Virus record (IMG/VR): IMGVR_UViG_3300043571_000443
Coordinates: 10,187 to 74,186 of that record
Reading direction: 5' to 3' (one strand)
Length of the DNA stretch: 64,000 bases
Source of the DNA: a virus
The position numbers and the translations under genes were made by a program. This document shows positions 2,085-54,504 of the stretch, in pieces; position 1 is the stretch's first letter, and each line of letters starts with the position of its first letter. The notes beneath the pieces were generated by a model. The model ran no database searches. It saw only the letters and a program-made list of their open reading frames with translations, and was not told the DNA's origin.

Positions 2085-2123
2085 ACCACGCTGGGGCCTC
2101 CGGGCCCCTTAGGAGAACCACCC

Positions 2124-3321: not shown

Positions 3322-3530
3322 CACCCTGGGGGGAGACTAACCAGGCCACTTACAGAGGAAGACTATGAACACCATCCAACCCGCCGATCTGCCCGTGCCC
3401 GCCAGCCAAGGCATTGCCAGCCCAGTCGATGCAGCCCTGTTTGCGGTGACTGGTGCCGTTGTGATTGCCATTGCCGCAGCGGAAAACCGGGAGAAAGGCA
3501 AGAAAAAGTAAGTCTTTTGCTGCCACCCAA

Positions 3531-3553
3531 GCCCCGGGCTGGCCGGGGTTTTA
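3531..3553 (+). terminator. Intrinsic terminator
   Basis: CCCCGG-GCTGG-CCGGGG hairpin plus T-run. Related terminators occur at 3681, 21347, 41806, 42168 and 43051. Confidence 0.7.
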
Positions 3554-3567
3554 TCTTGACTCTGGCG

Positions 3568-3630
3568 AGTCCCCACCCTGGTGGGAGTGTTTCAATTTGC
3601 AGTTTGCTATCCCACTTTGGTGGGAGCAAA
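3568..3630 (+). repeat. Two-copy CCCAC-N4-GTGGG hairpin cluster between two terminators
   Basis: CCCCACCCTGGTGGGAG at 3571 and TCCCACTTTGGTGGGAG at 3610. Confidence 0.65.
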
Positions 3631-3680
3631 ACCCAAACGTAAGCAAATTGCGGTAGACTGGATTTGTTAGATGCACTTCA

Positions 3681-3703
3681 GCCCCGGCCACCCGGGGTTT
3701 TTT
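3681..3703 (+). terminator. Intrinsic terminator
   Basis: CCCCGG-CCAC-CCGGGG followed by TTTTTT. Confidence 0.7.
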
Positions 3704-3723
3704 GTTGTGGGCATCCTGGATCC

Positions 3724-4347
3724 ATGGCAACCAAGAAACCCACACCAAAGCTACGATCCAAGCACGCCCCCAAGCCAGCTCCTGGTGCTAGGCGGGGTAA
3801 CCGGCAGGTGGTAAAGACTTCCGGCCAGCCTGCTACGCCAGCCTGCAAGGAGCGGGCCTTTGAGCTGTACTGCGAGCTGGGGCCACAATGGGCCGAAATA
3901 TCTAGGCGACTGAAGGGCGAAGGCTTTGACCGCTGTGGCAATACGACGATCAGCGGCTGGGCCAAGGCAGGCGACTGGCACGCCAGGAAGCTAGCTATGA
4001 CTGAAGCGCCAGGCGAGGCGGCAAAGGTGCCCCACAAGACCAAGGCAGCACCGCCCCCACCGCCAGCGACAGACCTGGGCAGCTACCGCACCAAGAAAAC
4101 CAACCTGGAGCATGTCAGGACGGCCATTGAGCAGGTGGTGCAGTCCATCTGTGATGCACGGGCCACCAGCGACCTGCGGGCCATTGGTAGCCTAGCAACG
4201 GCGTTGGTAAAGCTGATTGAACTTGAGGGGAAATTAAGCCCCGCCACGGCAGCCGAACTAGCGGCTAGGGCCGTAGAGCTGGGTATGGATCCAGAACAAT
4301 TTGTGGCGGCATTGGCAGAGCAATGGCGGATCGCCAAAGCTGGGTAA
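3724..4347 (+). CDS. Putative terminase small subunit (HTH)
   Basis: RAFELY...AEISRRL...TTISGWAKAGDW HTH pattern plus helical C-terminus; preceded by the late-motif variant GGGCATCCTG at 3709. Confidence 0.5.
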   Translation: MATKKPTPKLRSKHAPKPAPGARRGNRQVVKTSGQPATPACKERAFELYCELGPQWAEISRRLKGEGFDRCGNTTISGWAKAGDWHARKLAMTEAPGEAAKVPHKTKAAPPPPPATDLGSYRTKKTNLEHVRTAIEQVVQSICDARATSDLRAIGSLATALVKLIELEGKLSPATAAELAARAVELGMDPEQFVAALAEQWRIAKAG

Positions 4348-4350
4348 GCG

Positions 4351-4440
4351 CTCCCACGGGGTGGGGTTGCTCAGGGCAAAGAATAACTCCCACGATGGTG
4401 GGGTGATCTAGCGACCGGAGCGACTCCCACCGAAGTGGGG
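4351..4440 (-). repeat. Three short-period (36-37 bp) hairpin units adjoining the CRISPR-like array
   Basis: CTCCCAC-N3-4-GTGGGG at 4351, 4387 and 4424. Confidence 0.7.
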
Positions 4441-4457
4441 CTGGGCTGCTGGGTTTG

Positions 4458-4832
4458 GAAAAACCCCCACCGAAGTGGAGAGGCGTTTGCGAACAGGCCG
4501 GGGAGGGGCCGGGGGCCGGGGCATGGTGGGGAGAAACCCCCACCGAAGTGGGGAGGTGGTTGCGAGTTGTCAAGGCTGACTTTGAAGCTGGCGTGGCGGT
4601 CGAGAAACCCCCACCGCAGTGGGGAGGTGCTTGCGAGTGTGCTTAGCAGAGCCCTTGATGCCAGCCTAGGCGACGAGAAACCCCCACCGAAGTGGGGTGT
4701 GCTTTGCGAGAACCCGCTGATCGAGGGCTTGACGCTTCGAGACTGGGAGAAACCCCCACCGAAGCGGGGAGGTCTTTGCGAGCAGTTAGGACAAATTGAC
4801 TCGAAGACGGAAAAACCCCCACCGGAGTGGGA
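4458..4832 (-). CRISPR. CRISPR-like array: five 36-nt repeats plus one partial repeat; spacers of 37, 35, 37, 36 and 27 nt
   Basis: Repeats GAGAAACCCCCACCGAAGTGGGGAGGTGnTTGCGAG (+ strand) start at 4458, 4531, 4602, 4675 and 4747, with a partial copy at 4810. Periods of 73, 71, 73 and 72 are not all multiples of 3. Orientation is inferred from the hairpin position. Confidence 0.75.
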
Positions 4833-4931
4833 TCCACCACTGTCACCACAAATTGTCAATGTCCTGCCTACCACTATAGCACACATCCACCAACCTGGGC
4901 ACCCTATAAAAAATTCTCTGAGGGATCCACC

Positions 4932-5801: not shown

Positions 5802-6217
5802 GGCAATGGCACCCGGTCGACGGCAGACTGGGCGTCGATGGCAGGGTTGCCCTGATCGTCTTGTAGGGCAAATACTTTCCGCACGGTGCCATCCGGGTTG
5901 TATTGGGTGGCAGTGCTATTGGGGTAGTCGATCTTGAAGCGCCCCAGGGTAAAGGCTTGGGCCAGGGCCAGGGTGCTAGCAATGTCCGGGTTCACAGCAC
6001 CCACCACATCGACCCCAAGCGGCACGGCCCCAGCGTTGGCAAACCAGCGCACCTCGCCGCCTGCATCAGGTAGCTCCACTACCGCCCGCCAGATGCCGCC
6101 GCCCAGGTGGGTAGGATTTTGCAAAGCACCCAGGGTGGTGCCGTCGAATAGGCGATACTGCACCCCGCTGGTATAGCGAGAGCCCAGGATCGCAGCACTG
6201 GTGATAGTTTGGGTCAT
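5798..6217 (-). CDS. Virion-associated hypothetical protein
   Basis: Translationally coupled within the tail-fibre operon. Confidence 0.6.
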   Translation of the reverse strand: MTQTITSAAILGSRYTSGVQYRLFDGTTLGALQNPTHLGGGIWRAVVELPDAGGEVRWFANAGAVPLGVDVVGAVNPDIASTLALAQAFTLGRFKIDYPNSTATQYNPDGTVRKVFALQDDQGNPAIDAQSAVDRVPLP

Positions 6218-6516
6218 TAGGCGACTCCTATGGCAGTAATAGCGCCATCGGTGCGGGTAATGGTCTTGGTACGCACTACCGCAGGGCTGCGGGTGTAGTC
6301 AGTCTCGGTGATGCTGGTAATGGCGCCATTGGTGCGGGTGATGTCTTTGCGGTATAGCTCCGCCCCGCCATTGCTGACATAGATGCTAATCCGCGTAATA
6401 GCGCCATTGGTGCGAGTAATGGTCTTGTAGAACGGTTCAGGCCGCAAGGAGACCAAGGGCAGGACGCTGGTGGTTTCCAGGTTGCCCGAACCGTTTAGCT
6501 GGATTGCCTTTGCCAT
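6217..6516 (-). CDS. Small repeat protein (KxITRTNGAIT x3)
   Basis: Three internal repeats; coupled within the operon. Confidence 0.65.
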   Translation of the reverse strand: MAKAIQLNGSGNLETTSVLPLVSLRPEPFYKTITRTNGAITRISIYVSNGGAELYRKDITRTNGAITSITETDYTRSPAVVRTKTITRTDGAITAIGVA

Positions 6517-6520
6517 GGCG

Positions 6521-7042
6521 CTACACCACTGTCAAGGTGATAGGTGGGTCATTTTCAAACACAATTGACGTGGCTGAAATCGCATTGCCAAGTCGTTGTA
6601 GGATGACGTTCGCGCCAGGGGTGGCAGGGGCGGTAGACGAGAAGGCCCCTGCCGCTGTGGCGCTCAAGAATACCGTGCCCACTGTGGCACCGGTGACGGC
6701 GGTATTGCGCCCAGATAGGTACACCGTGGCATTAGCGGGAGAGGTCACCCCCGTCAGCACATAGCCAAAAGCTTGTCGTCCGTTACTTGCATCTGCTTTC
6801 CTGGCGGTTGGAGTGCCGGAGTTGTCAAAGATATTCACAAAGTCGCCAGCCGTCAGGTTTTCACTGGTGGGCAAGAGTACCGTCTGAAGCTCAACCCCAG
6901 GGGGCAAGAAGGTGGTATCCAGCAGACCCGAGCTATTGGTAGCGATCAGCTTGTTGGCGTCGCCTGCCCCAGCACTGCTGCTAGGCGCTTCGGTTAGGGT
7001 AGTGGTGCCGCTTACAACGGTCAAAAACTTTTTCGTAGTCAT
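6521..7042 (-). CDS. Virion structural or fibre accessory protein
   Basis: T/A/G-rich; KADAS motif shared with the neighbouring gene (YADSS). Confidence 0.6.
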   Translation of the reverse strand: MTTKKFLTVVSGTTTLTEAPSSSAGAGDANKLIATNSSGLLDTTFLPPGVELQTVLLPTSENLTAGDFVNIFDNSGTPTARKADASNGRQAFGYVLTGVTSPANATVYLSGRNTAVTGATVGTVFLSATAAGAFSSTAPATPGANVILQRLGNAISATSIVFENDPPITLTVV

Positions 7043-13221: not shown

Positions 13222-13316
13222 CTCCCACCATTGTGGGACATACACCATCTGGCCGAAGCACCCCCACCATTGTGGGGCCTGCACCCTCTGGCCGAGCCAC
13301 CCCCACCGCAGTGGGC
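13222..13316. repeat. Three-copy hairpin array (~39-bp period)
   Basis: CTCCCACCATTGTGGG, CCCCACCATTGTGGGG and CCCCACCGCAGTGGG, starting right after the recombinase stop codon. Confidence 0.8.
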
Positions 13317-23887: not shown

Positions 23888-24763
23888 CTACTCCTCCTCC
23901 ATGGCCAGGTCAAAGGCTGCTGACTGAAACTGCACCGTAAACGACAGCAGTTCAGGCCCGACGGTAACGCCGGTCAAGCCTAGCTTTAGCAAGCTCTTGG
24001 CCTCTAAAATCGTGGTGCCTAGGGTTACTGGCTGGTTCTGACCATTGGCGGTATCGACTAACAGCGTAGCCGTGATGGTGCGGTTTACCTGCTGGTTATT
24101 TTGGGTGACCGTCCAAGCTAATGTACTAGCCCCAGCGCCTTGGGTCACACTAGCCACAACGACTGGATCCGCATTGACCCGCAAGTGCAGCGCCATGATC
24201 TTACGCGGCTCATCGTTGTAGGTGATCAACGGGTATTGCTTAACTGCTGGCGTTTCAATGCCGCCGCTCAGCGAGTCCAGGCCAGAGGCGACCGGGATCC
24301 ACTTGCCGCCTGTGTTAGCGCCTGACTGCTGCCAGTAGTACAGCGTCATGGTGTCGCGGTCTAGGTAGCGGTCAAACAAGTACCTAGCCGCCAGAGGTGT
24401 CTCGCCCTGGCTTTGGGTGTTGGGGTCGCCTTGCCATGCCTGGAAGCCTCGCTCCTCAGCGACCTGGGCTAGGCGTTCCCGTAGGTCGCGGATAGCCTGG
24501 GCATCGCCGCCAAAGCTGGCAGGCATACCACCAACTAGGCCATTGTTAGCTGGTACAGCCTGGCCGACCGGCACCCCGCCAGAGGTGACCGTTCCCTTGG
24601 GGCGGTAGCTACCGGCTGCGCCAACGGTGCGATAGTTGCCGCCACCGTCATAGATGGCTGTGCGCTGGGCCTGGTCAGCACTGGCCGACTGGCTAGCCTG
24701 CTGGCCCTCTAGGCGTTGTTGTTGGCTGTTCAGCACCCGGCTGGTGATGGGTTGGGTTGCCAT
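23888..24763 (-). CDS. Tail protein (putative)
   Basis: Position in the tail operon; beta-rich C-terminus. Confidence 0.55.
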   Translation of the reverse strand: MATQPITSRVLNSQQQRLEGQQASQSASADQAQRTAIYDGGGNYRTVGAAGSYRPKGTVTSGGVPVGQAVPANNGLVGGMPASFGGDAQAIRDLRERLAQVAEERGFQAWQGDPNTQSQGETPLAARYLFDRYLDRDTMTLYYWQQSGANTGGKWIPVASGLDSLSGGIETPAVKQYPLITYNDEPRKIMALHLRVNADPVVVASVTQGAGASTLAWTVTQNNQQVNRTITATLLVDTANGQNQPVTLGTTILEAKSLLKLGLTGVTVGPELLSFTVQFQSAAFDLAMEEE

Positions 24764-43058: not shown

Positions 43059-43733
43059 CTAGCTGGGGGTTTTGCTTTGGGCCACATAGCTGAGCAGGTC
43101 CATTAACCGGCTGCCCCGCACTGGCGCGATCTGGTCCTCCAGTGGCTGATACTGGCTGATCGCCCGCATCAGCCTGTCGCTGTGGTACAAACCGCTATCG
43201 ATCTCCGTCTTGCTAAACCCCAGCGCCATTAGCCCCTCATAGGCAGCTAGAAGGCCCGTGAAGCGTTCCCGGCCTATCCACAGGGTATCTAGCTCGAACT
43301 GCACCGGGAAATGGTCTCTGCTATGGCCATCCTGGGCCCAGGGCAGCACATGTTTCTGGCCAGACTCAGCAATGACAATCGTAAACGGTGGCTCCGGTGG
43401 CTCCAGTAGCCAGCCACGGATCTGAGCTCGGGTGGGCAAGTCCGAGACTACCGGAAAGATGTCTTTGCCGATGGCCTTGGCCTCACCGATCGCAGGCGAC
43501 AGCAGCACATCGCCCTGGTACAACCGGCTCAGGGACCGGCCCCATAGCTTACTCCACTTGTCCTTGCCCTGATTCCAGTACCACAGCAGCTTCTCATGGC
43601 CGTCGATGGCACCATAGCACCGCCCGCATAGCTGGTCGGAGTCTGGGCAACGGGCCATGCTGTGGCCGGTGAAAGTGTCCTTGAGCGCCAAGGGGAAGCT
43701 GGCGGGCTTGCCGCATAGGTAGCACTCAGCCAT
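43059..43733 (-). CDS. csf1: Type IV CRISPR large subunit Csf1 (Cas8-like)
   Basis: N-terminal Zn finger CYLCG...TFT...CPDSDQLCGRC and LLEPPEPPF...SGQKHVL motifs; ATG at 43733 overlaps the cysH stop. Confidence 0.75.
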   Translation of the reverse strand: MAECYLCGKPASFPLALKDTFTGHSMARCPDSDQLCGRCYGAIDGHEKLLWYWNQGKDKWSKLWGRSLSRLYQGDVLLSPAIGEAKAIGKDIFPVVSDLPTRAQIRGWLLEPPEPPFTIVIAESGQKHVLPWAQDGHSRDHFPVQFELDTLWIGRERFTGLLAAYEGLMALGFSKTEIDSGLYHSDRLMRAISQYQPLEDQIAPVRGSRLMDLLSYVAQSKTPS

Positions 43734-44469
43734 GGTCTGCAACCTCCGGAAAGTGTTTACAAAATTCAGCCCAAAATTCTGGATGGTAGCGCCGCAGGTC
43801 ACTGAGTCGCCCCCAGTTTACGCCAGTAGTCCCGATGGGTGGCCCATTGCGCACCGTCAGCCGGTCCCGGTCGTACATGGCAGGGTAGGGCAGTCGGTGG
43901 GCGTCGATATAGCACCAAATATCCTGGGTGCTCCAAAAGCCGACCGGCGAACATACCCACAGGCCATCCTTACGCTGGTATAGCTCGCCCTTGCCCTTCA
44001 GGTACATAGCGCGGCCCCGAGACTCTTTGCGTAGCCCCCAGGCATAGCCTCGCACGCCATGGGCCTCCTGGTAGTCATCCAGCGGGCCATACATTAGCGC
44101 TGCATTAATGCGCTTGTCCAGGCCGGTCGCCATGGTGCCATCCAAGGGAATGCCATAGTCCTGGTACAGCTTCAGTAGGCTGCGGGGTGGGCATAGCTCG
44201 ATGATGTTCCAGCCCTGGCCCTGCAGGTGGTGCAATAGCTCGATGCAGTCCGGCCATTCTGCCAACGGCCCTTGGTTTACCCAGGCAAAAGGGCAGTCCG
44301 GCCATACCTGGCGGATTAAGTGAGCCATTACCAAGCTATCCTTGCCGCCACTGACTGAGCCATAGGCGTAGCGATCTGTGGCCTCCAGCCAGCGGCCAAT
44401 AACAGAAAGCGCCCGGTCAACCTTGCGGGTCAACCAGGGCGCTCGTGAGCCGGTGCCGGTGTTAAGCAA
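43726..44469 (-). CDS. cysH: CysH / PAPS-reductase-like protein of the type IV-B locus
   Basis: PP-loop SVSGGKDS, WGLRKESRGR, PVGFWS...IWCYI...LPYPAMYD. Confidence 0.85.
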   Translation of the reverse strand: MLNTGTGSRAPWLTRKVDRALSVIGRWLEATDRYAYGSVSGGKDSLVMAHLIRQVWPDCPFAWVNQGPLAEWPDCIELLHHLQGQGWNIIELCPPRSLLKLYQDYGIPLDGTMATGLDKRINAALMYGPLDDYQEAHGVRGYAWGLRKESRGRAMYLKGKGELYQRKDGLWVCSPVGFWSTQDIWCYIDAHRLPYPAMYDRDRLTVRNGPPIGTTGVNWGRLSDLRRYHPEFWAEFCKHFPEVADHG

Positions 44470-44770
44470 GCTGCATCCGCTCGCTCATTGCATCCGCAAA
44501 CCATTCGCGGATCTTGTCTTCGGCATTGTCATAAAAGCGAGTGTTGGAGTCGTCATCCCACTCTTCGTCGTTGAGGTGGGGGACGGTAAGAATGAGTCCG
44601 GGGCTATCGTACAGGTTCCCAACAGAACCCTTGTCCAGGGATCGGTAGGTGCCATCCTCAAACAGCTCAACAACGTAAGCACCGCCGCCCCAGGATGCCT
44701 TTGTGGAAGAATCAACGGTGGCCTCGAAGTCGATGGCCATGAAGTTATCGAAAGCCTTTTGAATAGTCAT
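44462..44770 (-). CDS. Small, very acidic protein in promoter cassette 3, inside the cas operon
   Basis: D/E-rich (NDEEWDDDS); own promoter. Confidence 0.7.
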   Translation of the reverse strand: MTIQKAFDNFMAIDFEATVDSSTKASWGGGAYVVELFEDGTYRSLDKGSVGNLYDSPGLILTVPHLNDEEWDDDSNTRFYDNAEDKIREWFADAMSERMQLA

Positions 44771-44777
44771 CAGTCAG

Positions 44778-44837
44778 TCCTCATAAGTGGTTTGTTCCAT
44801 GCCTTCAATATACCCCCTGCATATCGAACTGTCAACA
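44778..44837 (-). promoter_or_regulatory. Repeated promoter cassette, copy 3
   Basis: TTGACA-17-TATATT; the -35 overlaps the cas6 stop codon; CCACTTATGAGGA leader. Confidence 0.8.
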
Positions 44838-45440
44838 CTTTTCGACAAAATAGCCACAGCCTAGGCGCTGTCTACCTCCTAGCCCTTGCCGCTGGAGAGT
44901 CAGCGACGCATCCGGCGATAGGTCGGCAAAGCTTACCCCGTAGCCCACCACGGCAGCATCCTTGATCCGCAGGGTTTTGCGCTCCCCCAGTACCGGCATA
45001 GACTGTACCCCCAACCGTTCCAGCGCCTTGCCTAGGGCTATCCCGAACTCAAAAGGTGACACCTGGTCCTGGTACTGGGCTTTGATGGTCACCAGCCTTG
45101 CCTCCAGGCTAGGACATGGCTGCAGGGATGCACCCGTGAAGGTGCCTAGCTGCACCAGCGCCTTACCCACCCGCAATACTTGCCCGTCCAGGCTACCGAA
45201 TAGCTCCAGGTTGGCCAGCTCAGTCCGCACCCCTAGCCAGCTTTCGCTACCCAGTTGCACCCAGCCCTGGCGGTCCGGGATACCGTTGATCGTCTTCAGC
45301 GACCAGGCCAGCTCCTTTAGCCCCGGCAGGCGTTCCACCAGAGCGCTATAAAGCCGGTAGCCATGGTCGGCGGGTATCCTATCGCCCTGCACCGGCCAAG
45401 CTAGCTGTATCCAGGTAGGCGGTGTGGACGGGCATGGCAC
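44832..45440 (-). CDS. cas6: CRISPR-associated endoribonuclease Cas6 (Myxan / I-B-like)
   Basis: LAWPVQGDRIPADHGYRLYSAL N-terminal motif; C-terminal Gly-rich loop GLGGRQRLGCGYF; probable GTG start at 45440. Confidence 0.85.
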   Translation of the reverse strand: MPCPSTPPTWIQLAWPVQGDRIPADHGYRLYSALVERLPGLKELAWSLKTINGIPDRQGWVQLGSESWLGVRTELANLELFGSLDGQVLRVGKALVQLGTFTGASLQPCPSLEARLVTIKAQYQDQVSPFEFGIALGKALERLGVQSMPVLGERKTLRIKDAAVVGYGVSFADLSPDASLTLQRQGLGGRQRLGCGYFVEKC

Positions 45441-46107
45441 AGCGGGCTTTGTTGGCTGATAGCCAGGCGGGGGGTCGCCAGCCCCAGTCGCGGATGGCAA
45501 TATCAATCGGTCGGTCCCGGGGCAGGTGGACGGCGGGGATGGGTCGCATAAGTTCACCGTTTGGCCCCCATAGGTGCCAGTCTTGGTCATGGTCCTCTAC
45601 CTCCCAGTTGGTAACTTGCCCGTAGCCATGGGCGCGTTTCTTGCCTAGCCCAGTACAGCCTTGCAATAATGCCGCGATGCCTTCCCGGTCGCCCTGGCAG
45701 TACCAGGTGATTGTCGGTGCCAGCCGCACAAACAAGGGCAGGTCGTAGGCTTTCTCCGCCCCCTGACTGGTATCCCACTTTGCCTTGCGCTTCCCCCAGG
45801 CCGGTGGTGGGCTATCGATCCCAGGTGCCCAGCGCTTCCTAAATTTGCTAACCGACTCATTGCGGTAGGTGTAGCACGGACTAGAGGTTTGCCAGTACCA
45901 ATCCTCGCCCAGCCAACCCTTAGCCAGTGGCATGTGTTCATCCACTACCGGGCGGCTAGCTTCTACGTCCTGGGCGCTAGGGTTGGGGGCCGCCATGCCC
46001 CGGGCATCGAGGATCAACCACTCCAGCAGGCTAGCCAGATCAGGACTCCAGTCATCAAAGACGGCAATGCCCGACGATAGCCGGGCGGTGACTCGCAGGT
46101 TAGCCAT
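45379..46107 (-). CDS. csf3: Type IV Csf3 (Cas5 group)
   Basis: LRVTARL RAMP start, WYCQGD...LGKKRAHGYGQV Gly loop, MRPIP, WRPPAW. Confidence 0.8.
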   Translation of the reverse strand: MANLRVTARLSSGIAVFDDWSPDLASLLEWLILDARGMAAPNPSAQDVEASRPVVDEHMPLAKGWLGEDWYWQTSSPCYTYRNESVSKFRKRWAPGIDSPPPAWGKRKAKWDTSQGAEKAYDLPLFVRLAPTITWYCQGDREGIAALLQGCTGLGKKRAHGYGQVTNWEVEDHDQDWHLWGPNGELMRPIPAVHLPRDRPIDIAIRDWGWRPPAWLSANKARCAMPVHTAYLDTASLAGAGR

Positions 46108-47263
46108 TGAGCAAACCCTTCAGCTCGCTGGACTCCTGGGCCTGGGCTAGAAATTCCTGGTAGACGCTCAGGTAGTCCTGATAGGCATGGTGGGCCTCCT
46201 GAGCGGCGCTGGATAGCGTCTGGCTGCCAGTAGCTAGCGATAGGAAATGGCCGCGCTCCTGGCCACGCTGATACCAAAATTCTAGCGACACCAACCCATT
46301 GCCGCGGTTAGCCTTGCCGCCGATATAGGGACTTTCGGCAAAGCGCAGTAGGGTATCGACTACCCAGCCAGTCTCGATGGCGGTGGTGTGCAGATCCCAG
46401 CGGCTATAGAGCCTGGAACCCGCCATGATCAGCCGGTCGCTGGCGATCATCTGGTCAGACTTTTTGGCCTTATCCTCACCCTTAGCCTTTGACTTGGCCT
46501 CACCCAATAGGCTCATCTGGCCTTCCTCCGTACCGCCTGGGAGGAACTTTTGCAACGCTGGATCGTGGGTACTATCGCGGCGGGTGGTTTGGTCTACCGT
46601 CAGGTACTGGGTCCAGTTGCGCAGCATCTTGCGCAGGTAGGGCAGGTGGTCTGCCTTGGCCTGGCGGTAGACTTCAACCTGCTCAGCCGTAGGTGGCTCA
46701 AACGGATTAGCTGTTAGCCTGTCTTTGTACTCCAGTAGTTCCTGCAGCCTGGGCAGTACATCTGGCGGCAATAGGCCGGGAAATTCCCGGTAGATCAGCT
46801 CCGCCGACTCGTAGCACAGCAGATACGCACTACCCACCGCCAGTCGGCCATGGACCATCTGGGCATTCTTCACCCCAAATACCCCGGCAGGCTTGGCCGT
46901 ACCCAGCACCGACAGCCAGGGCATCAACTGCCGGATGCGGGTGTCCAGGTCCATATCGTTGGCGGTGCTGCCATCAATGCGGCCGCCAGCAAATAGGGTG
47001 TGGTGAACATCTGGCGATACCTGCAGGGCCAGCGCATCCAGCACACTAGCCATGCCACGGCGGCGTAGGATACCATTCCGCAGCGCATTGCCAGAATAGA
47101 CAAAGCAGGAGACCGGGTTCCCCTCCAGGTCCAGCAGCTTGGCCGTCTTGAGGTTACTGACATTGCCTGCTACCTCGCCAATGTGGGACAGCGGGCTTTG
47201 CAGGGTCACCTGGCAGTGCAAGGTGATCCGCTGCCGATCATGGATATCGTAAGCTTCAAACAT
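46100..47263 (-). CDS. csf2: Type IV Csf2 (Cas7 group backbone)
   Basis: TLQSPLSH, YSGNALRNGILRR, LFAGG, TTRRD, IGGKANRGNG. Confidence 0.85.
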   Translation of the reverse strand: MFEAYDIHDRQRITLHCQVTLQSPLSHIGEVAGNVSNLKTAKLLDLEGNPVSCFVYSGNALRNGILRRRGMASVLDALALQVSPDVHHTLFAGGRIDGSTANDMDLDTRIRQLMPWLSVLGTAKPAGVFGVKNAQMVHGRLAVGSAYLLCYESAELIYREFPGLLPPDVLPRLQELLEYKDRLTANPFEPPTAEQVEVYRQAKADHLPYLRKMLRNWTQYLTVDQTTRRDSTHDPALQKFLPGGTEEGQMSLLGEAKSKAKGEDKAKKSDQMIASDRLIMAGSRLYSRWDLHTTAIETGWVVDTLLRFAESPYIGGKANRGNGLVSLEFWYQRGQERGHFLSLATGSQTLSSAAQEAHHAYQDYLSVYQEFLAQAQESSELKGLLNG

Positions 47264-47771
47264 CGGTGGTTACCTCTACGTCGATAGCATCGTCTGGCGC
47301 ATCCTGGCCTAGCGCCCGGTCTTCCTCAAAGCGCAGGCGGCACAGCACCTGAATGATAGCCGCCCGGGTCCGGCATAGCTCAAGCACATCCCACTCGGTA
47401 AAGCCGTCCTTGGCGATCTGCTGCAGCAAGTCCCGCCAGCCGACAAAGACTAGCGCCTCATCCTGGGTCAGCTCCTGGATCTCGCTCAGGTCAGCGTTTA
47501 CCCGTAGGATGCGCTGCTCTGGCTGCACGATGCCGGTCAGTACCGCTGGCCGTAGGTGGCTGATCAAGGCATTGACCAGGCGTTGTAGGTAGTCCTCCAG
47601 CGTGGTGGATACCTCAGCGCTATTCTGGATAGTGGACTCCAGAAAAGTCCAGGTCTTGGTGCCCATGGCTGGACTTTTGGCCCGGTCGCGGCACTTGAAC
47701 ACCCAATAGCTAAGGGCTGCCGCTAGCCCATAGGCGCTATCGGAGGCATTGGAAAAACCGAATTGACTCAT
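47256..47771 (-). CDS. Type IV-B small subunit (Cas11-like)
   Basis: All-helical ~170 aa protein coupled upstream of csf2; TATAAT on the minus strand at 47791-47796. Confidence 0.55.
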   Translation of the reverse strand: MSQFGFSNASDSAYGLAAALSYWVFKCRDRAKSPAMGTKTWTFLESTIQNSAEVSTTLEDYLQRLVNALISHLRPAVLTGIVQPEQRILRVNADLSEIQELTQDEALVFVGWRDLLQQIAKDGFTEWDVLELCRTRAAIIQVLCRLRFEEDRALGQDAPDDAIDVEVTTDV

Positions 47772-47885
47772 AATGCTTGACAAAACTGCCATTATAGTAT
47801 CACAACCCTGGCCAGCCACGACAAAGCCCGCCAGGTGGCCAGCGGGCTGGGGTGGGGGAGTGGGGTGGAGGGGGAGTGTCCTCTT

Positions 47886-48197
47886 TTACTCAAATACGAC
47901 TCGCCGCATCTCCTCTTGCACACCAAGCATTAGTTCTAAAGCTTGGTCAAATGTTCGATTTACTCTGCCCATGCGCTGACGGACATCTGGCTCAACTTCA
48001 GACCCCAAGGCCCTTTTTGCCAATAAATCGAAGATAGCTTCTTCCAAAAGCGCTTGAACGCTAGTATTCTCCTGAGAAGCTATTTCCCGCAGCTTGACGG
48101 AGACCTCTGGATCAAAGCGACCAGCTATCATCTTTTTGTTTCGTCTAGCTTTGTTGGCATCAACATCAAGCATGAAATACAGCTCCATCAGAAACAA
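47886..48197 (-). CDS. Ribbon-helix-helix regulator
   Basis: IAGRFDPEVSVKLREIASQENTSVQALLEEAI. Confidence 0.65.
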   Translation of the reverse strand: MFLMELYFMLDVDANKARRNKKMIAGRFDPEVSVKLREIASQENTSVQALLEEAIFDLLAKRALGSEVEPDVRQRMGRVNRTFDQALELMLGVQEEMRRVVFE

Positions 48198-49413
48198 AAG
48201 TTAGAATTTCGGTCATGTCAGTCAACATCACCCTGTTCTTTTTGGCCATGTTATTCATCCTTGCCATGTTGGGATTTTGGGCCTGCTGAATGCGCCTAGA
48301 GGCATAGGCCTTGTCGTAGAGCGAGTAACCCGCTTGCGTGAAAACACTTTCAACAATGCAAGTAACCGGCAGGATCTTTTTTGTAGAAACATCCCGATAG
48401 TTGGGAGTCATGACAGTGCAAAGCCCTTTGCCCTTTTGAGCCGCTGCACAATTCCTGGCTATGCCTGCCATCGATCTTGCCCACAAGTCAAATTCCATAT
48501 TGGCTATATCGTCAGACCGATCCGAGTACTGGTTGACCACCATGCCATAGTAGGGAATGTCCATCACGATGTAATCAACGTCAGCCACGGGTAGACCTAG
48601 CCTAAGGTCGTTCTGCTGAATCTGATCTGCATAGCGACCCCGGGGGGAAAGGTCGAAGCATCGCAAGTCAATGTCCCATTGGTCGCCAACCATCCATTGA
48701 GCCCGGTTTTCCCAGACGTTTATAATCTGGCCGCTACCCGCCATCGGTGCGACTACCTTAGCGCCCGGAAAGGTGTAATACCAAAGGCAATTTGCGTAAA
48801 TATCCCCTGGGATATAGCCATGGGAATGATCATTCTCCGGCAGCCGATCAAAAGCAACTTGAGAAAAGTTCCAGTTGTCAGTAGGCTTTATGATCGGGCT
48901 AAACTCAGGCTCTTTGCCGGTGCGCGGGTTCAGGTACAAAGGGATATTGTTCTCTATCTTGTACTGCTTGACCACGTTGGTGACAACGGCTGCAGTTGGC
49001 TTTGCCTCTGACGTAAGCACAGCCTCAAGCACCTCTGCCTTTTGCTCTTGACTTAGACCAGATGTAGCTATCGGACGAACAGAGCCTTCAGATAAGCCCA
49101 GCTTATCAATATTGGCTTGAATGATTACAGGATCGGCGTTTTTGGTGACAATTGGCACCGAGTTAACTGTGTCTGCGAACGCAATTGATCTGTTGACATA
49201 GTTGCTGCCTAAGTTCCATCTTTCTTGGCAATAGGCTTCAAAGGTTGTAAACCCCAGGTCTTGATAATGCCGATCGTCCCGGATCTCCTTTAAGGCCATG
49301 GCAAGAATATACAGCTTGCCGATTGCTTCCCCAATGTGATCCTCAAGCTGCTTTAGCCGGTCTTGCTTGCTTAAGCCTGCCCCTGGCGGCAGTTGAGCAA
49401 AAGTCATACTCAT
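48166..49413 (-). CDS. DNA methyltransferase-like protein with N-terminal helical domain
   Basis: VVAPMAGSG (motif I variant) and MDIPYY (DPPY variant); N-terminal LKEIRD...FTTFEAYCQERW phage domain. Confidence 0.6.
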   Translation of the reverse strand: MSMTFAQLPPGAGLSKQDRLKQLEDHIGEAIGKLYILAMALKEIRDDRHYQDLGFTTFEAYCQERWNLGSNYVNRSIAFADTVNSVPIVTKNADPVIIQANIDKLGLSEGSVRPIATSGLSQEQKAEVLEAVLTSEAKPTAAVVTNVVKQYKIENNIPLYLNPRTGKEPEFSPIIKPTDNWNFSQVAFDRLPENDHSHGYIPGDIYANCLWYYTFPGAKVVAPMAGSGQIINVWENRAQWMVGDQWDIDLRCFDLSPRGRYADQIQQNDLRLGLPVADVDYIVMDIPYYGMVVNQYSDRSDDIANMEFDLWARSMAGIARNCAAAQKGKGLCTVMTPNYRDVSTKKILPVTCIVESVFTQAGYSLYDKAYASRRIQQAQNPNMARMNNMAKKNRVMLTDMTEILTFVSDGAVFHA

Positions 49414-51047
49414 TCTGCGTAGTCCTCCGGGTTCTGCTCTTTGCTGATCAGAAACGGAGAAGGAAGCATTCTGGCCTTGACGTAAGTAGGGGAACCGTAA
49501 ACCCTTACAAAGGCATCGCCAGGACAGAACGTTGTAGTTTGACCTGCTGCATAATCATTACCTTCTAGGGCTTTGATCGCCATCGGTTTAGCGCCATGCC
49601 TCATGATGATCCGAGTGTTGCAGTAGTTCACAATGTTGTCAGGTATCTCGGTAAATGCCTGGACACAGAAGAACGAACCTACGTGCTTAGACCTGCCTTT
49701 CCGGGTGATCTCCTCAAAAGCTTTGACAGCAATTTTCCTTAAAGACTCCCCGCCATTAAAGATGTCCTGAGCCTCGTCGATGATATTGGCGATCCATGCC
49801 TCGATCTTGCCGCTGGCCCTTCCCTTAAGCTGGAAGTTAAGGAGAGTCACGGTAAACATTGCATATTCAGACGAAGAGCAATTGGTGACGTTGATGACAT
49901 TAATCCTTCCAGCTTGAAACACCTCAGAATTTTCAAGGAAGTTAGAGTAGTTCTTTTTCTGGATCTTGAGAATACTGGAAGATCCCGCATTGTCCCTATC
50001 AATCCACTTTGGTACCCGGCAAGGCAGCTTATAAGCAGTCGCCAAGATAGCTTGGTGGACATTAGCCCCCTTGAAAATCCCTCGACCCATCTCAGTAAGC
50101 TCTCTACCTCCGTTCTTTTCCCTGGTTACAGTATTGTTGAACCATTCCATGAAGTCCTGGAGAGACCAATATTGATCTTTGTGGTCTTCCGCATAGGCAT
50201 CAAACAGCAAGCCAAAAACAGCCCGCTGCTTGTCGTCGCTATCTCCCGGGAACAGGCAAGTTTCCAGAAGAAACTCTCGGTTAACCTCCGAAAAAGGAAT
50301 GCTGATCACGTTTTCGCCTGGCTTAGGATCGCCAAGTGTCCACATCTGGACAACCTCTTCAGGAAATCCAGCCGGATCTGGCCCAAAATCGTTAGGACTC
50401 GTCAAATCCTGATAGTCAGGCTTATGATCGAGCATAAATACACAGTGGCCGGGATAGGTGCCATTAGCTTCAAACCCATTCAGAACAGATACTATTCGGC
50501 CGACTGTCTCCGTTTTACCGCTGCCAATGGTACCCGCAACTATCGCATTATGGTCAATGACCCGTTTATTAAGCGCTACAGGAATTTCAGTGCCGTCAAT
50601 ATGCCCGATGACGTTAGAAGCCTTGGCCTTAGGAAGCCTGAGAGCAACTGTTACATTTAACTCGCAGGCCTTTACCGCCTTCAATCCGTCCTTTGGACGG
50701 TAAAGTATAGGGGAAGCAACGCCGTCCACAATCATCCCAATAGGTTCCGTCACATACATCTGGACAGTGCTGCCAAGAAAACTTTGCTCTAGCTTTCCAG
50801 CGGCTACTCTGCTCATGGCTGCTGTTAATCTAGGATCTTTCCGGTCCAGTCCACCCAACGGCAAGTTCCTGTTAGGTTCTTTAACGACTAAAACCCAAGT
50901 GTCCTTGTCGCTAGAGATCTGCAGAAAAGTGTTGACAGGAATAAAAACATTGGACTTTTTGTCAAAAGACAATAGTTTTATGACTGCAGCATCAGTACCT
51001 TCTTCGTCAGACCAAACAATCAATGCGTTTAATGGATCAGAAGACAT
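49410..51047 (-). CDS. herA: HerA-like (DUF87) ATPase
   Basis: Walker A AGTIGSGKT, LDHKPDY, Walker B IIDEAQ, arginine finger RKGRS. Confidence 0.8.
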   Translation of the reverse strand: MSSDPLNALIVWSDEEGTDAAVIKLLSFDKKSNVFIPVNTFLQISSDKDTWVLVVKEPNRNLPLGGLDRKDPRLTAAMSRVAAGKLEQSFLGSTVQMYVTEPIGMIVDGVASPILYRPKDGLKAVKACELNVTVALRLPKAKASNVIGHIDGTEIPVALNKRVIDHNAIVAGTIGSGKTETVGRIVSVLNGFEANGTYPGHCVFMLDHKPDYQDLTSPNDFGPDPAGFPEEVVQMWTLGDPKPGENVISIPFSEVNREFLLETCLFPGDSDDKQRAVFGLLFDAYAEDHKDQYWSLQDFMEWFNNTVTREKNGGRELTEMGRGIFKGANVHQAILATAYKLPCRVPKWIDRDNAGSSSILKIQKKNYSNFLENSEVFQAGRINVINVTNCSSSEYAMFTVTLLNFQLKGRASGKIEAWIANIIDEAQDIFNGGESLRKIAVKAFEEITRKGRSKHVGSFFCVQAFTEIPDNIVNYCNTRIIMRHGAKPMAIKALEGNDYAAGQTTTFCPGDAFVRVYGSPTYVKARMLPSPFLISKEQNPEDYAE

Positions 51048-51049
51048 GG

Positions 51050-52156
51050 TTATTTCCCTCTAAAATCGTCACTGTCAATCAAATCGAAAGCCTGGCCAGG
51101 GTTATGTTCCATCACCACTGACTCAAGCCTGGCCTGCACACTACTCCTGTCATGGCAGCCATCTAGAAAAGCATCTACATGGTCAAGCAAGAAAGGAATC
51201 TCGTGTCCAGGCGTATCAGAACGCTCCCCGTACATCATTGCCAACGCCCAATGCAGCTGATCAATGCGACACTCGAAACCGAAATACTTAGACTGCCCTG
51301 TAGTTGGATTACCTGGACGATACACACCCCTGCAATATTTGGCGGGCACCCGCTCCATCCATGCAGCCTTGTTCTTAGACGAAGCCCAGGTTTTATTCCT
51401 TTTCTGAAGCAGAGTCCGGCAATCCGTTATGATGTAAGCCTCTCCATCTTTAAGCACCTGCCCAGAAATCTGCTCCTCAGGAGAAGAGGCAGATAAATTC
51501 TTGATCACACCAACCACACGCTTGCCAGACTTCAAGATTTTTTCTGTCAGCTTTTCCCCATCTGGCTGAGTAATCAAATTCTGAGTAAGGATGGGGCCGT
51601 CTACAATAACCGACTGGCTAGAACAGTTAAGAGCCAGCTCCCTCTCTTTGTACTCTCGGAACGTGTTAGGCCACGACCTGTCTTGAATGGTCAACGACTC
51701 AATCAACTGATCAAAGGAAAAACCTTTTTTGCCAGCTAAAGCTGGGGTCGCCTGCGCTCTAAACACTTGAGGGTCAGACATGCTAGTGGTGTACCCTATG
51801 CCAGCGACAATAACCTCATAAAACTGCCCAACCAAAGTCTGAATCAAGGGACTGTCGGTCGCATCTATTGCAAAAAGATCGTCCCTATACTGCTGAATTT
51901 CAGGATCGTAGTAGTCAAACCAATCTTGCAGGTTGCAAAGAAATCCAACATCAGGCAAAGAATCCTTAGAAGATTCGTTCCACTGATCTGGGGTCATAAA
52001 GCAACCCTCGACAAAATGCCTCATCTCTGCCAATGCAGGCTGCGACCTTTCAAACAAATCCAGTACTTCTGCGGTCTGATAATGCAACGGATCGTTGTAA
52101 ACGTCGTCAGTAATGTCTTTGCAGCCTGCAAGAATCTTTGAAAACTCAGACGCCAT
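51050..52156 (-). CDS. nurA: NurA-like nuclease
   Basis: FAIDAT, VIVDGPI, VVGVIKN and IPFLLDHVD motifs; directly upstream of herA. Confidence 0.65.
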   Translation of the reverse strand: MASEFSKILAGCKDITDDVYNDPLHYQTAEVLDLFERSQPALAEMRHFVEGCFMTPDQWNESSKDSLPDVGFLCNLQDWFDYYDPEIQQYRDDLFAIDATDSPLIQTLVGQFYEVIVAGIGYTTSMSDPQVFRAQATPALAGKKGFSFDQLIESLTIQDRSWPNTFREYKERELALNCSSQSVIVDGPILTQNLITQPDGEKLTEKILKSGKRVVGVIKNLSASSPEEQISGQVLKDGEAYIITDCRTLLQKRNKTWASSKNKAAWMERVPAKYCRGVYRPGNPTTGQSKYFGFECRIDQLHWALAMMYGERSDTPGHEIPFLLDHVDAFLDGCHDRSSVQARLESVVMEHNPGQAFDLIDSDDFRGK

Positions 52157-52251
52157 CTATAAAACTCCAGTCTGCGTACTGTCAACAAAGTCATGCTAAC
52201 ACAACTAAGCTTAAAGTTGGCGGCTATTATTTGGATTTTATAACTTTTGGG

Positions 52252-52506
52252 TTCCCCCACCCCTGTGGGGCCTGCACCATCTGGTTGAACCACCCCCACC
52301 GCAGCGGGGCAGTTAACGCCCTTCAGCAGGACACACCCCCACCCCGTGGGGCCTCTGAAAAGCTACCGATCCACCCCCACCATCATGGGACACCATAACC
52401 CTGTAGGAGTCACCCCCACCCGGTGGGGCACAGGAGCTAAACCGATCAACTCCCACCGCAGTGGGGCCTTTATCCCGAGTGACTCACCCCCACCAGCGTG
52501 GGGCCT
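52252..52506 (-). repeat. Seven-unit hairpin array (period about 37-43 bp) with I-E-like repeats and short linkers
   Basis: CACCCCCACC-N2-3-GTGGGGC(C) units at about 52254, 52291, 52334, 52372, 52411, 52448 and 52485, with non-identical linkers. Confidence 0.8.
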
Positions 52507-52509
52507 GGC

Positions 52510-52707
52510 CTACGCCGCGTCCTGCTGCTCTCCCTCCTCCATTACCACCACGGGCTCTAGCACCTGCCGGGCCAGGGCCTGCATGGCTGGCGGGGCGTCT
52601 GGCTGGGCTAGCACCAGGGCGGCTAGCTCCTTGGCCGCAGCCTGGGCGGCTTTGGTGCGGGCAATGCCCTTGCGGAAAATAGCCTTCGACTGTGCAGTTA
52701 GTTGCAT
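52510..52707 (-). CDS. Hypothetical protein
   Basis: Last gene of the replication operon; the array starts right after its stop codon. Confidence 0.5.
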   Translation of the reverse strand: MQLTAQSKAIFRKGIARTKAAQAAAKELAALVLAQPDAPPAMQALARQVLEPVVVMEEGEQQDAA

Positions 52708-52709
52708 GG

Positions 52710-52937
52710 CTACTTCCCTCCCAGGCTAAAGGGCGAGGTCCGCCTGTCCTCAGCCAGTATCCGCAGGCTCAATGCCAACGATACCCCTGGCTCTGACCTG
52801 GGCATCAGCGCTGCCACAGCTTGCAGGTTCTCCGGGCTGGCCTGCTCTAGCAGGTAGCCGATAGCGACTTCCACCAGCTTGCTGGTTTCTTCAGGGTTGG
52901 CGGTGCAATAGGCCGCCAGTTGTCGGGCTAAGTTCAT
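52710..52937 (-). CDS. Hypothetical protein
   Basis: Coupled within the operon. Confidence 0.5.
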   Translation of the reverse strand: MNLARQLAAYCTANPEETSKLVEVAIGYLLEQASPENLQAVAALMPRSEPGVSLALSLRILAEDRRTSPFSLGGK

Positions 52938-53170
52938 GGTCGTGGCTCTTGATCAGGGCAAGTATCGTCAGTTGGTGGGCCGTAGGGGCGCACCGCACAG
53001 GGCAGATAAAACCGGCTGCTAAGGTTGTGGTACTGGCAGCCCAGACAAACGTCTGGGGCTATAGCTTTCCGGCAGTGGCCTACGGTGCTAGGCATGGCCA
53101 GCGCCCGGCCATTGTTGCGGTGGCGTTGCATCCGGCGCAGTAGGCCGATCAGGCGATAGGCTTCACTCAT
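52934..53170 (-). CDS. Small Cys-rich protein
   Basis: CLGCQYH...CAVRPYGP...C motif. Confidence 0.5.
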   Translation of the reverse strand: MSEAYRLIGLLRRMQRHRNNGRALAMPSTVGHCRKAIAPDVCLGCQYHNLSSRFYLPCAVRPYGPPTDDTCPDQEPRP

Positions 53171-53384
53171 GGCACGCCTCCCAGTCGGCGCATTGGTTCC
53201 AGATGGCTGGCCCGCCAGGGTAAAGGCCACAGTACAGCGCCACCCCGAATTCTTTCTTGCCGTGGTAGTGGCGGCAGCTATAGCAAGCCGCTGGCCTTGG
53301 CACTAGCTCGACGGTCATGGGTAGCAAGTCCTGGTTCCTCACACCGCCACCTCCTGACGGCAGTTGTAGACCGGACTGCGCCAA
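53163..53384 (-). CDS. Small Cys-rich protein (paralogous motif)
   Basis: CYSCRHYHG...CGLYPGGP...C; start uncertain. Confidence 0.5.
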   Translation of the reverse strand: MAQSGLQLPSGGGGVRNQDLLPMTVELVPRPAACYSCRHYHGKKEFGVALYCGLYPGGPAIWNQCADWEACHE

Positions 53385-53674
53385 TAGGCTGGCGGCGCAT
53401 AGCCAGCTTGGGACTCGAACACTAGCCGCCCGCTAAAAGACAGCTCGTAAAACAGCGTGTACTGCTCTAGCGGCCAGGGCCAGGGCTTGCCGGGGGGAAC
53501 CAGCATGTCGCCCCACTTACGCCACAGCCAGACAGCGGCAGCAGCCGCTGGATCCGGCTCTTCGCTAAAGTCAGGGATCTGGCACTCGAAGCTTTGAGAC
53601 ATTCCAGGCTCAGTGGCAACAACCACATGCACTGGCAGAAAAGGTAATGGCATGATTAATCTCCACAAAAACAA
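53339..53674 (-). CDS. Hypothetical protein
   Basis: Within the operon. Confidence 0.45.
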   Translation of the reverse strand: MFLWRLIMPLPFLPVHVVVATEPGMSQSFECQIPDFSEEPDPAAAAAVWLWRKWGDMLVPPGKPWPWPLEQYTLFYELSFSGRLVFESQAGYAPPAYWRSPVYNCRQEVAV

Positions 53675-54504
53675 GATTGTCGATTGTCGTCAAAAACGTC
53701 TAACACTGGCTGGCGCAGGATTTCGGCCAATGGACGGGTGCCAAAACTAGCCCCAACCCGCTCTTCCTGTGCTAGCCACCATTGCAAGTTTTCGGGTTCC
53801 AACACGGCTTGGCGTTGCAGCTGCACCGCTGTATGGTGAAAGCAAAAACGACAGTTGCTAATTTCAGGGAACACCCAGCCCTTACGGTTCCAGAATTGGC
53901 GGATAGTGTTGTGGCTGATCCTGTCGTTGTACAAAGGAAACTGGGGCACTCGCCATTCGACGGTGGTATACTGCCAGCGCTTATCAGGCGTTAGCCCACA
54001 AGCCACTGGCGCTTTTACCTTGTCGTTGTCGCAGTTCCAGCCTTCTACCCGTCTGGGTTCATCCCACCTAAAGCCAATATTCATCAGCACCGGATCGCGG
54101 TCCCACCAAAACCGCCATACATGCCAAAAGATCGGCATGATCTTTTGCTGAATAGTGCAGAACCGCAACCGCTTATTAGGTAGCATCGGGCCACCTGAAC
54201 GGCAGCCAGGAAGATCGGTTTGTTGCGAAACAAACCGATCTAGGCTGTATTCTGCCGCCACCCATTGGATCGGCTTGCCTAGCTCTTGCTCTAGCCTTAG
54301 GACATTGACCAAAGTCTGGTCAGCTTCATGGGTAGCAATAAAGCCAGGAATCCTAGCCTGAGCCTCCCGCAGCAGGCCAGAATCCTTAGGTGCTGATGGC
54401 GCATGGTCAGTCAGGACTACTGAAAAAATGTAGTAGTCCGTTGGGTAGTGAAACGCCATATAAGCGCTCGTCTTGCCGCCGCTGACTGATGTAACGCTTT
54501 TCAT
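53656..54504 (-). CDS. PAPS-reductase-like (PP-loop) phage protein
   Basis: SVSGGKTS, RFCT...K, IGFRWDE, SNCRFCF. Confidence 0.75.
   Translation of the reverse strand: MKSVTSVSGGKTSAYMAFHYPTDYYIFSVVLTDHAPSAPKDSGLLREAQARIPGFIATHEADQTLVNVLRLEQELGKPIQWVAAEYSLDRFVSQQTDLPGCRSGGPMLPNKRLRFCTIQQKIMPIFWHVWRFWWDRDPVLMNIGFRWDEPRRVEGWNCDNDKVKAPVACGLTPDKRWQYTTVEWRVPQFPLYNDRISHNTIRQFWNRKGWVFPEISNCRFCFHHTAVQLQRQAVLEPENLQWWLAQEERVGASFGTRPLAEILRQPVLDVFDDNRQSCFCGD

Follow-up and report, generated by a model that had tools for sequence, protein, structure and literature searches.

What could be the use of CRISPR-repeat-like hairpins that are stacked so closely that only a few nucleotides are left between them to serve as spacers? 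The question is raised by an array of seven such hairpins at positions 52255-52503 of a 64,000-nucleotide stretch of viral DNA, hereafter the window, which comprises bases 10187-74186 of the 74,186-bp IMG/VR virus record IMGVR_UViG_3300043571_000443; coordinates marked G000 refer to the whole record. The record carries direct terminal repeats, near-identical sequence is present in many lake-water metagenomes, and among its phage genes are those for DnaB, SSB, integrases and a sigma-like factor. We favour, with moderate confidence, the reading that the array consists of seven pseudo-repeats and six ultrashort pseudo-spacers belonging to the phage's own minimal type I-E module, and that it would be cut by Cas6e and loaded into truncated particles.

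Seven hairpins at the end of a replication operon

Read on the minus strand, each of the seven GC-rich hairpins has a 6-bp stem of the form CCCCAC/GTGGGG (with the variants TCCCAT and CCCCGC) and a loop of 3-4 nt whose sequence varies, and the local folding energies of the units range from -7.4 to -12.4 kcal/mol. The periods of the array are, in order, 37, 37, 39, 38, 43 and 39 bp, and the linkers, from the end of one stem to the start of the next, measure 21, 22, 23, 23, 27 and 23 nt. A 7-nt tail, GTNNNTC, follows units 1-6 and is missing after unit 7; the three bases before the stem vary (AGG, GTG, CTG), and about 20-23 nt of the unit are conserved. The motif CCCCAC-N2-7-GTGGGG occurs ten times in the window, against 0.05 copies expected from shuffled sequence.

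The array begins with unit 1 (52488-52503; CCCCAC-gctg-GTGGGG, -12.4 kcal/mol, tail GTGAGTC at 52481-52487), whose stem starts 6 nt past the TAG stop codon of a 65-aa gene on the same strand (52510-52707). This is the last gene of a conserved replication-module operon, and the array is its 3' untranslated region (UTR). Unit 2 (52451-52466; CCCCAC-tgcg-GTGGGA, tail GTTGATC) is followed by a linker that is identical in all eight phages compared, unit 3 lies at 52414-52428 (CCCCAC-cgg-GTGGGG, tail GTGACTC), and unit 4 (52375-52390; TCCCAT-gatg-GTGGGG, tail GTGGATC) contains two G.U wobbles and therefore pairs on the minus strand only. The sole 27-nt linker of the array follows unit 5 (52337-52351; CCCCAC-ggg-GTGGGG, tail GTGTGTC), and the linker after unit 6 (52294-52309; CCCCGC-tgcg-GTGGGG, tail GTGGTTC), which also has a minus-strand G.U wobble, resembles those of another cluster of the same family at 13223-13316. 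The stem of the terminal unit 7 (52255-52270; CCCCAC-aggg-GTGGGG) is 98 nt upstream of the ATG of a NurA-like gene (52156), and the AT-rich spacer between them (52157-52254, minus strand) forms the edge of a cargo island of low GC content (0.47-0.48, against 0.58).

A scan of 51900-53400 found no promoter-like and no terminator-like site, and there is no T-run at the hairpins; in the window as a whole, a scan at Rfam gathering thresholds matched no family and a tRNA scan found none. The array lacks the U-tract that accompanies the hairpin of an intrinsic terminator, and in the bacterial genomes scanned its motif turns up in CRISPR arrays and not as a repetitive extragenic palindromic (REP) element. 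As a whole the array does not fold more stably as RNA than shuffled sequence (z = -0.93), a score that is uninformative because the identical arms can pair between units. Assembled metatranscriptome contigs from four runs, which represent relatives about 90-95% identical, cover 52477-54000 and stop within unit 1, and contigs from RNA libraries of two studies end at 52477-52504, inside the same unit; the lack of cover over the remaining units carries no weight, DNA carry-over is possible in these libraries, and the contig ends are at best a weak hint of an RNA 3' end there.

The features that mark a type I-E repeat, namely a GC-rich stem of 6-7 bp, a 4-nt loop and a 3' handle of 7-8 nt, are all found in the units, whereas the whole 28-29-nt repeat with its 5' flank (GTGTT or GTCTT) is not, and in place of spacers of about 32-33 nt at a period of about 61 bp there are periods of 37-43 bp and linkers of 21-27 nt. 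The pseudo-spacers come to 8-10 nt if a canonical 29-nt repeat is assumed, and to 13-15 nt if the stretch between handle and following stem is taken. When bacterial genomes were scanned with the stem and tail, genuine 61-bp I-E arrays were returned from Thermus, Nocardiopsis, Anaerolineae and others, and in 120 bacterial loci the motif occurs almost only in such arrays. Metagenomic homologues of the phage's Cas7e (36-48% identity) are flanked by normal 62-64-bp arrays, whose repeat, GTCTT-CCCCAC-N4-GTGGGG-GTG(G/A)GTCG, agrees with the short units in its stem and in its GTGNNTC handle; loops also vary between repeats in that lineage, and one of these loci has the same gene order as the phage, with a truncated cas8e-like gene, cas6e, cas7e and cas5e. 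Judged by this likeness of sequence, the units of the array derive from type I-E CRISPR repeats. The original prediction, made from the letters of the window, had described seven units about 37-43 bp apart with a core of about 20 nt on the minus strand, resembling I-E repeats and separated by spacers far below normal length (about 10 nt if the repeats are 29 nt long); all of this is correct, the stem and tail matching both canonical I-E repeats and those beside the Cas7e homologues. It had also named, as something that would speak against it, abundant host REP-like repeats unlinked to cas genes, and nothing of that kind appeared among the 120 loci.

Two metagenomic loci may be noted here. A 109-kb contig (L237) has the same minimal I-E architecture together with normal 63-bp arrays, and a contig of a Chloroflexota metagenome-assembled genome (L176) carries at 1860-2100 a normal I-E array with the same stem, in which two units have linkers of 28 and 30 nt, that is, spacers of 15-17 nt, amid linkers of 44-54 nt.

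A type I-E module and the company the array keeps

Outside the window, at G000 2210-4609, the phage encodes Cas6e, Cas7e and Cas5e, so that the cognate proteins of a type I-E repeat are present in the same genome as the array. Cas6e (G000 2210-2821; PF08798, 1.5e-31) has a C-terminal glycine-rich loop, and its N-terminal SLHRY motif may hold the catalytic histidine; Cas7e (G000 2917-4170; PF09344, 4.9e-69) is 417 aa long, with its nearest named counterparts, from Dehalococcoidia and Oceanithermus, just 33-34% identical; and Cas5e (G000 4163-4609) is short, at 148 aa. A divergently transcribed open reading frame at G000 674-1738 is Cas8e-like, its product being 39% identical (E = 5e-50) to a 300-aa protein of a related locus which in turn matches the N-terminus of Cas8e models at 8e-17. 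Short hairpin units sit between cas6e and cas7e and directly after cas5e. Hidden Markov models of the Cse1, Cse2, Cas1 and Cas3-core families had no match in the whole record and did match in control genomes, and the array is accompanied neither by cas1, cas2 and cas3 nor by the AT-rich leader of a standard I-E array. On these matches, G000 674-4609 is a minimal I-E module consisting of a truncated Cas8e-like protein, Cas6e, Cas7e and Cas5e without a detected nuclease. The same interval also encodes a 214-aa protein with a weak match to an SfsA-type nuclease domain (E = 0.0024).

What the array travels with can be seen from seven relatives, IMG/VR contigs whose DnaB is 95-99% identical to that of the phage, two of them near full length (G001, 77.5 kb; G002, 72.8 kb), and from a distant comparison set of five phages of 75-85 kb with DnaB about 45% identical. 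A homologous array of 4-11 units stands directly after the homologue of the 65-aa gene in all seven relatives; the order of linkers is shared, whole units have been lost or duplicated and one has been triplicated, and the terminal hairpin is without its tail, or handle, in eight of eight arrays. What lies downstream varies, with genes for NurA, HerA and a methyltransferase found solely in this phage and a Bro-N protein or unknown genes in the other relatives, and the array stands where the conserved operon gives way to variable cargo. Three relatives (G001, G002 and G004) keep the array and have no csf genes, which in this phage form a type IV-B-like block, and no Cmx6-type Cas6 anywhere in the record. 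Both G001 and G002 encode Cas6e and Cas7e and carry long as well as short units, often in one array that switches from the long to the short period, while Cas7e and hairpins are both missing from the five distant phages; module and hairpins are found together in three phages. By this pattern, what the array goes with is the I-E module and the close of the replication operon; it is not tied to the IV-B or NurA-HerA cargo. The original prediction had the array heading the nurA-herA-methyltransferase block and, as the first of two possibilities, serving the IV-B complex (the second being tandem crRNA mimics of the Racr kind), and had proposed that it be sought beside homologous IV-B loci. Both associations dissolve in the relatives: the array is present also where IV-B is absent, and the genes downstream of it change from one relative to the next.

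Three further lines of evidence point to a role at the level of RNA and in connection with Cas proteins. Among 155 units of the clade, single changes within the internal stem leave a G.U pair on the tail strand in 28 cases and on the other strand, as A.C, in 3, counting the five internal stem pairs, since the outermost pair is loosely kept; a formal count over 88 units put the paired cells at 93.4%, compared with 50-62% in slid controls, and one-sided changes are nearly all G.U. Stem and tail are held while loops (58 distinct sequences) and linkers diverge, which argues against neutral decay; the tail positions of the alignment were fixed by our own filter, and the unfiltered figure is that about 40 of some 50 units carry the full GT...TC tail on one side, which gives the unit an orientation. 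The third line is that of length. Among 113 unique linkers, 52 measure 20-24 nt, 15 measure 27-29 nt and 3 measure 33 nt, with none at 25-26, 30-32 or 34-39 nt and with peaks of a long class at 52-53 and 57 nt. These steps fit a length of 8 + 6n + 1, in which n Cas7 subunits, each covering 6 nt, would come after a handle presumed to be bound by Cas5, and for which the canonical value, as in bacterial I-E arrays, is 45 nt (n = 6). In E. coli, Cascade can form on shortened CRISPR RNAs (crRNAs), taking up fewer Cas7 subunits, and a spacer of 14 nt is still enough for it to recognise a target (PMC5159557).

The array belongs to a larger family of hairpins. In a relaxed scan of the whole record, about 50 units were found scattered over about ten loci, with single and double copies at operon junctions, and nearly all of them are intergenic, share the orientation of the flanking genes and begin 1-8 nt past a stop codon. 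Besides the array itself, short-period clusters occur at G000 2828-2880, at G000 4618-4859 and at 13223-13316, where three minus-strand units stand directly past the stop of a plus-strand integrase-family gene. Single or double units occur at 3571-3626 (two on the plus strand, from the relaxed scan), at 60422-60502 (two on the plus strand, between plus-strand genes) and at 63349-63426 (two on the plus strand, past the stop of the gene 62068-63342). A CRISPR array with a long period of about 72 bp lies on the minus strand at 4465-4832, with short units at its distal end (4352-4440), and a second of the same period is found at G000 6065-6541; their 36-nt repeat consists of the family hairpin, extended by 13 nt on its 5' side and followed by the tail GTTTCTC. 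Exact searches of IMG/VR with the cores of the long repeat and of the short unit gave no match outside the record. The two long arrays are convergent, each with a truncated leader-proximal repeat and with short units at the distal end, and nine further family units (G000 212-623), with linkers of 20-63 nt, lie close to the record's left end, on the downstream side of the Cas8e-like gene.

Of the genes beyond the array, the type IV-B-like block (43059-47819, minus strand) comprises cas11, csf2, csf3, a Cmx6-type cas6 (44832-45590; PF09559, 5e-47), a cysH-like gene and csf1, and is variable cargo present in four of the seven relatives. Type IV-B systems are usually described as having neither cas6 nor arrays. 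The low-GC cargo island (48166-52156, minus strand), specific to this phage, contains the NurA-like gene (51050-52156; ESM Atlas score 0.90, structure TM 0.75, no Pfam match), a HerA gene (49410-51047; PF01935, 1.2e-10) and a weakly matching, type II methyltransferase-like gene (48166-49413), after which comes a ribbon-helix-helix antitoxin-like gene (47886-48197). In the replication module, a second PAPS-reductase-like protein (53656-54504; PHROG 424, 5.5e-24), distinct from the cysH-like gene of the IV-B operon, is missing in some relatives, and in or beside the gene upstream of DnaB a tandem 21/42-bp repeat of about five copies (TGTCA-N-TGACA plus a C-run; 56336-56441) has the look of iterons or an origin.

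Guides, decoys or processing sites

If the reading that we favour is right, minus-strand transcription of the replication-gene operon would run on through the array as its 3' UTR, and Cas6e would cut at the 3' base of each stem, leaving the upstream mRNA capped by a hairpin and freeing six RNAs of about 37-43 nt. Each would have a 7-8-nt 5' handle (GUGNNUC), a variable part of 13-15 nt (in one RNA 19-20 nt) and, at the 3' end, a hairpin of 16 nt. Around these RNAs truncated particles would assemble from Cas5e, Cas6e and two or three copies of Cas7e, and with no nuclease present the particles could do no more than bind. The data establish the anatomy of the array, its homology to I-E repeats, its occurrence alongside the I-E module and its independence from IV-B, the strand-specific pairing and the 6-nt steps in length; cleavage, loading and any target are what we infer. 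The units may yield guides, may yield decoys or may serve as sites of mRNA processing and capping, three readings that have the processing step in common.

Several observations weigh against this reading. The co-occurrence with the I-E module comes from one clade, no Cas11 to accompany the module was detected in the whole record, and the Cas8e-like protein is truncated. The main class of linker lengths is 3-4 nt wide (20-23 nt), which makes the 6-nt ruler approximate, and related units inherit their lengths from common ancestors, so that the linkers cannot be counted as independent. Over the 88 units no significant compensatory covariation is seen in the stems, because the stem sequence itself is conserved, and the cluster at 13223-13316 is antisense to its upstream gene, the sole cluster of which this is true. 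With a canonical 29-nt repeat, the stretch left for pairing would come to 8-10 nt, less than the 14-nt spacers with which E. coli Cascade was tested. The pseudo-spacers have no self-target in the phage at up to two mismatches, and 12-mers of 19 pseudo-spacers matched 2.9 Mb of unrelated loci 27 times, against 31 expected.

Other searches for targets gave a similar picture. No protospacer match beyond chance was found in the phage's own genome, in the relatives or in the 2.9 Mb, and the pseudo-spacers are too short for a search of large databases. Seed-type matches within the phage number 7-9, against 3-3.6 in shuffles, an excess too small to convince, and none is in a cas promoter. The long spacers gave nothing convincing against the other loci compared and no target among INPHARED phages (E of about 0.4-0.5), and exact 22-nt scans of IMG/VR with two of them found no match; none of the spacers of the 120 bacterial I-E loci, searched for a host, matches the phage. 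One long spacer (L225, at about 24050-24080 of G001) has a 15-nt exact match in the phage's cas7e (G000 3689-3703), of a kind of which about two are expected by chance.

The processing step would be the same if the array were an RNA sponge or regulator directed at a host's type I-E system, after the manner of a Racr or a Cracr array, and the difference lies in whose proteins are engaged and to what end: the RNAs would soak up the host's Cas6e, Cas5e and Cas7e, tying them up in short particles of no use, or would steer its Cascade to its own cas promoter. We regard this as unlikely. The class of stem and handle is common in bacterial I-E arrays, which makes a host with matching repeats plausible, the fifty or so copies would provide a high dosage, the long spacers have no target in other phages, and viral multi-unit Cracr arrays with shortened pseudo-spacers have been documented (bioRxiv 10.1101/2024.10.29.618823). 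The phage, however, supplies Cas6e, Cas7e and Cas5e itself and the hairpins go together with that module, its pseudo-spacers are shorter than those of any described Cracr, and no acr genes were recognised nearby. The internal units carry a 5' handle, which Racrs do not (PMC10651486), and a Racr-like decoy in particular is weakened because these units have the full layout of a crRNA and the phage encodes its own Cas6e, Cas7e and Cas5e. Somewhat less probable still, in our estimate, is that Cas6e cuts the units merely to process the mRNA and cap its 3' end, uncoupling operons and stabilising the upstream messages without any guide function, the tandem copies serving reliability. Such a role would suit units that are intergenic, co-oriented and 1-8 nt past stop codons, with singles and doubles at operon junctions, and an array that stands exactly at the border of conserved operon and variable cargo with no promoter or leader of its own found in the scan of 51900-53400; the RNA contigs that end within unit 1 are a weak hint in the same direction. 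For capping, though, one or two hairpins would suffice where the locus holds 4-11, neither the 7-nt handle-like tail nor the 6-nt steps would be needed, and the terminal unit lacks the tail just as in a CRISPR array.

Explanations that dispense with the I-E module fare worse. It is quite improbable that the hairpins have a function outside CRISPR altogether, as REP- or terminator-like elements, as single-stranded DNA hairpins for replication or packaging, or as decayed old arrays. Their dispersed, intergenic and palindromic nature would agree with this, as would the lack of compensatory covariation and of unusual stability in the array fold (z-score as given above), and single-stranded DNA can tolerate a G.T pair too. 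Yet there is no T-run, the terminator and Rfam scans came back empty, the asymmetric tail is that of an I-E handle, loops and linkers diverge where stems and tails do not, linker lengths are quantised, and in bacterial genomes the motif is that of CRISPR arrays and not of REP elements. Least credible of all is that the array supplies short guides to the neighbouring IV-B (Csf) complex, cut by its Cmx6-type Cas6. A co-oriented csf operon with, unusually, a Cas6 of its own does lie 4.4 kb downstream of the array, and the 36-nt long repeats have the same stem; against this, the three relatives without Cmx6 Cas6 and Csf2 keep the array, two of them (G001 and G002) the long arrays also, the tail matches I-E handles, and the genes between array and csf differ in every lineage. 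The relatives largely refute the idea of IV-B guides.

Relation to known systems and significance

Set beside canonical type I-E systems, those of E. coli and of Thermus thermophilus with their Cascade and Cas6e (Cse3), the array is alike in its 6-bp GC-rich stem, 4-nt loop and 7-8-nt handle, the CCCCAC/GTGGGG stem being that of the Thermus-type class of repeats. It is alike too in that n repeats enclose n-1 spacers, the terminal repeat needing no handle, that the genome which carries it also encodes Cas6e, Cas7e and Cas5e, and that the linkers keep the 6-nt step of Cas7. It differs in its spacers of 13-15 nt (8-10 nt by the 29-nt accounting) in place of 32-33 nt, in a 5-nt flank before the stem that is not conserved and loops that differ from unit to unit, in lacking a leader, Cas1, Cas2, Cas3 and Cas11, in its placement in the 3' UTR of an mRNA and in the spread of the family over about ten loci.

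Closest in layout are the Cracr arrays and other crRNA-like regulators (CreR, CreA and viral mimics), in which repeat-like units flank shortened pseudo-spacers. The phage array shares this stacked arrangement on a mobile element, and binding-only Cascade particles with fewer Cas7 subunits would be expected of both. Described pseudo-spacers are 21-24 nt in I-E examples and mostly 17-21 nt in I-F (bioRxiv 10.1101/2024.10.29.618823), those of the phage falling below the whole 17-24-nt range, and a Cracr array holds 2-3 spacers, relies on the Cas proteins of the host and matches a cas or creT promoter there (bioRxiv 10.1101/2024.10.29.618823; 10.1101/2023.03.03.530964), whereas here there are six spacers (3-10 in relatives), no target found and Cas5e, Cas6e and Cas7e of the phage's own. 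Racrs are likewise phage-borne mimics of a CRISPR-repeat hairpin that a Cas6 should bind and cut. They are solitary and without a 5' handle, which excludes Cas5 and Cas8 from the particle (PMC10651486); the phage has seven units in tandem, with a handle on each internal RNA and a handle-bearing linker before each of units 2-7. The mini-CRISPR arrays of other viruses are also small and set apart from adaptation genes, but they hold 1-2 full-length spacers that match sister viruses (PMC11656645), in contrast to ultrashort spacers with no match in sister phages or IMG/VR. A precedent for a minimal three-protein Cascade is found in type I-Fv (I-F2), in which Cas5fv, Cas7fv and Cas6f form a backbone complex without the canonical large and small subunits and of a size that follows crRNA length (PMC4937334); I-Fv is of another subtype and uses Cas3 and normal spacers, while the phage module has a truncated Cas8e-like protein and no Cas3. 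What sets the array apart from Cracrs and Racrs is the greater number of units, the shorter spacers, the embedding in the 3' UTR of an operon and the phage-encoded Cas backbone.

The lower limit of length for a natural crRNA, and Cascade with two or three Cas7 subunits, have so far been studied only with engineered constructs in E. coli, and the phage clade offers a natural and conserved set of about 35 short RNAs whose steps in length suggest real assembly. A virus that holds Cas backbone proteins and repeat mimics together is rare according to reviews, and CRISPR-like arrays can evidently hide in the 3' UTRs of mRNAs, outside the view of array finders. For annotation, the attractive link of the array to the adjacent IV-B and NurA-HerA genes was wrong and is here corrected. 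A broader picture, which we advance tentatively and consider possible though doubtful, is that a temperate lake phage runs a nuclease-free minimal I-E Cascade on dozens of ultrashort crRNAs from the 3' UTRs of its own operons, with each transcription unit the source of a separate set of particles that are two to four Cas7 subunits in length. Were this true, guides of seed length would be natural RNA-guided binders of low specificity, of a sort that standard CRISPR finders miss, and the phage might use them to silence or mark, at set times, DNA or RNA of its host or of rivals, or might deploy them in a protein-and-RNA decoy against the host's Cascade.

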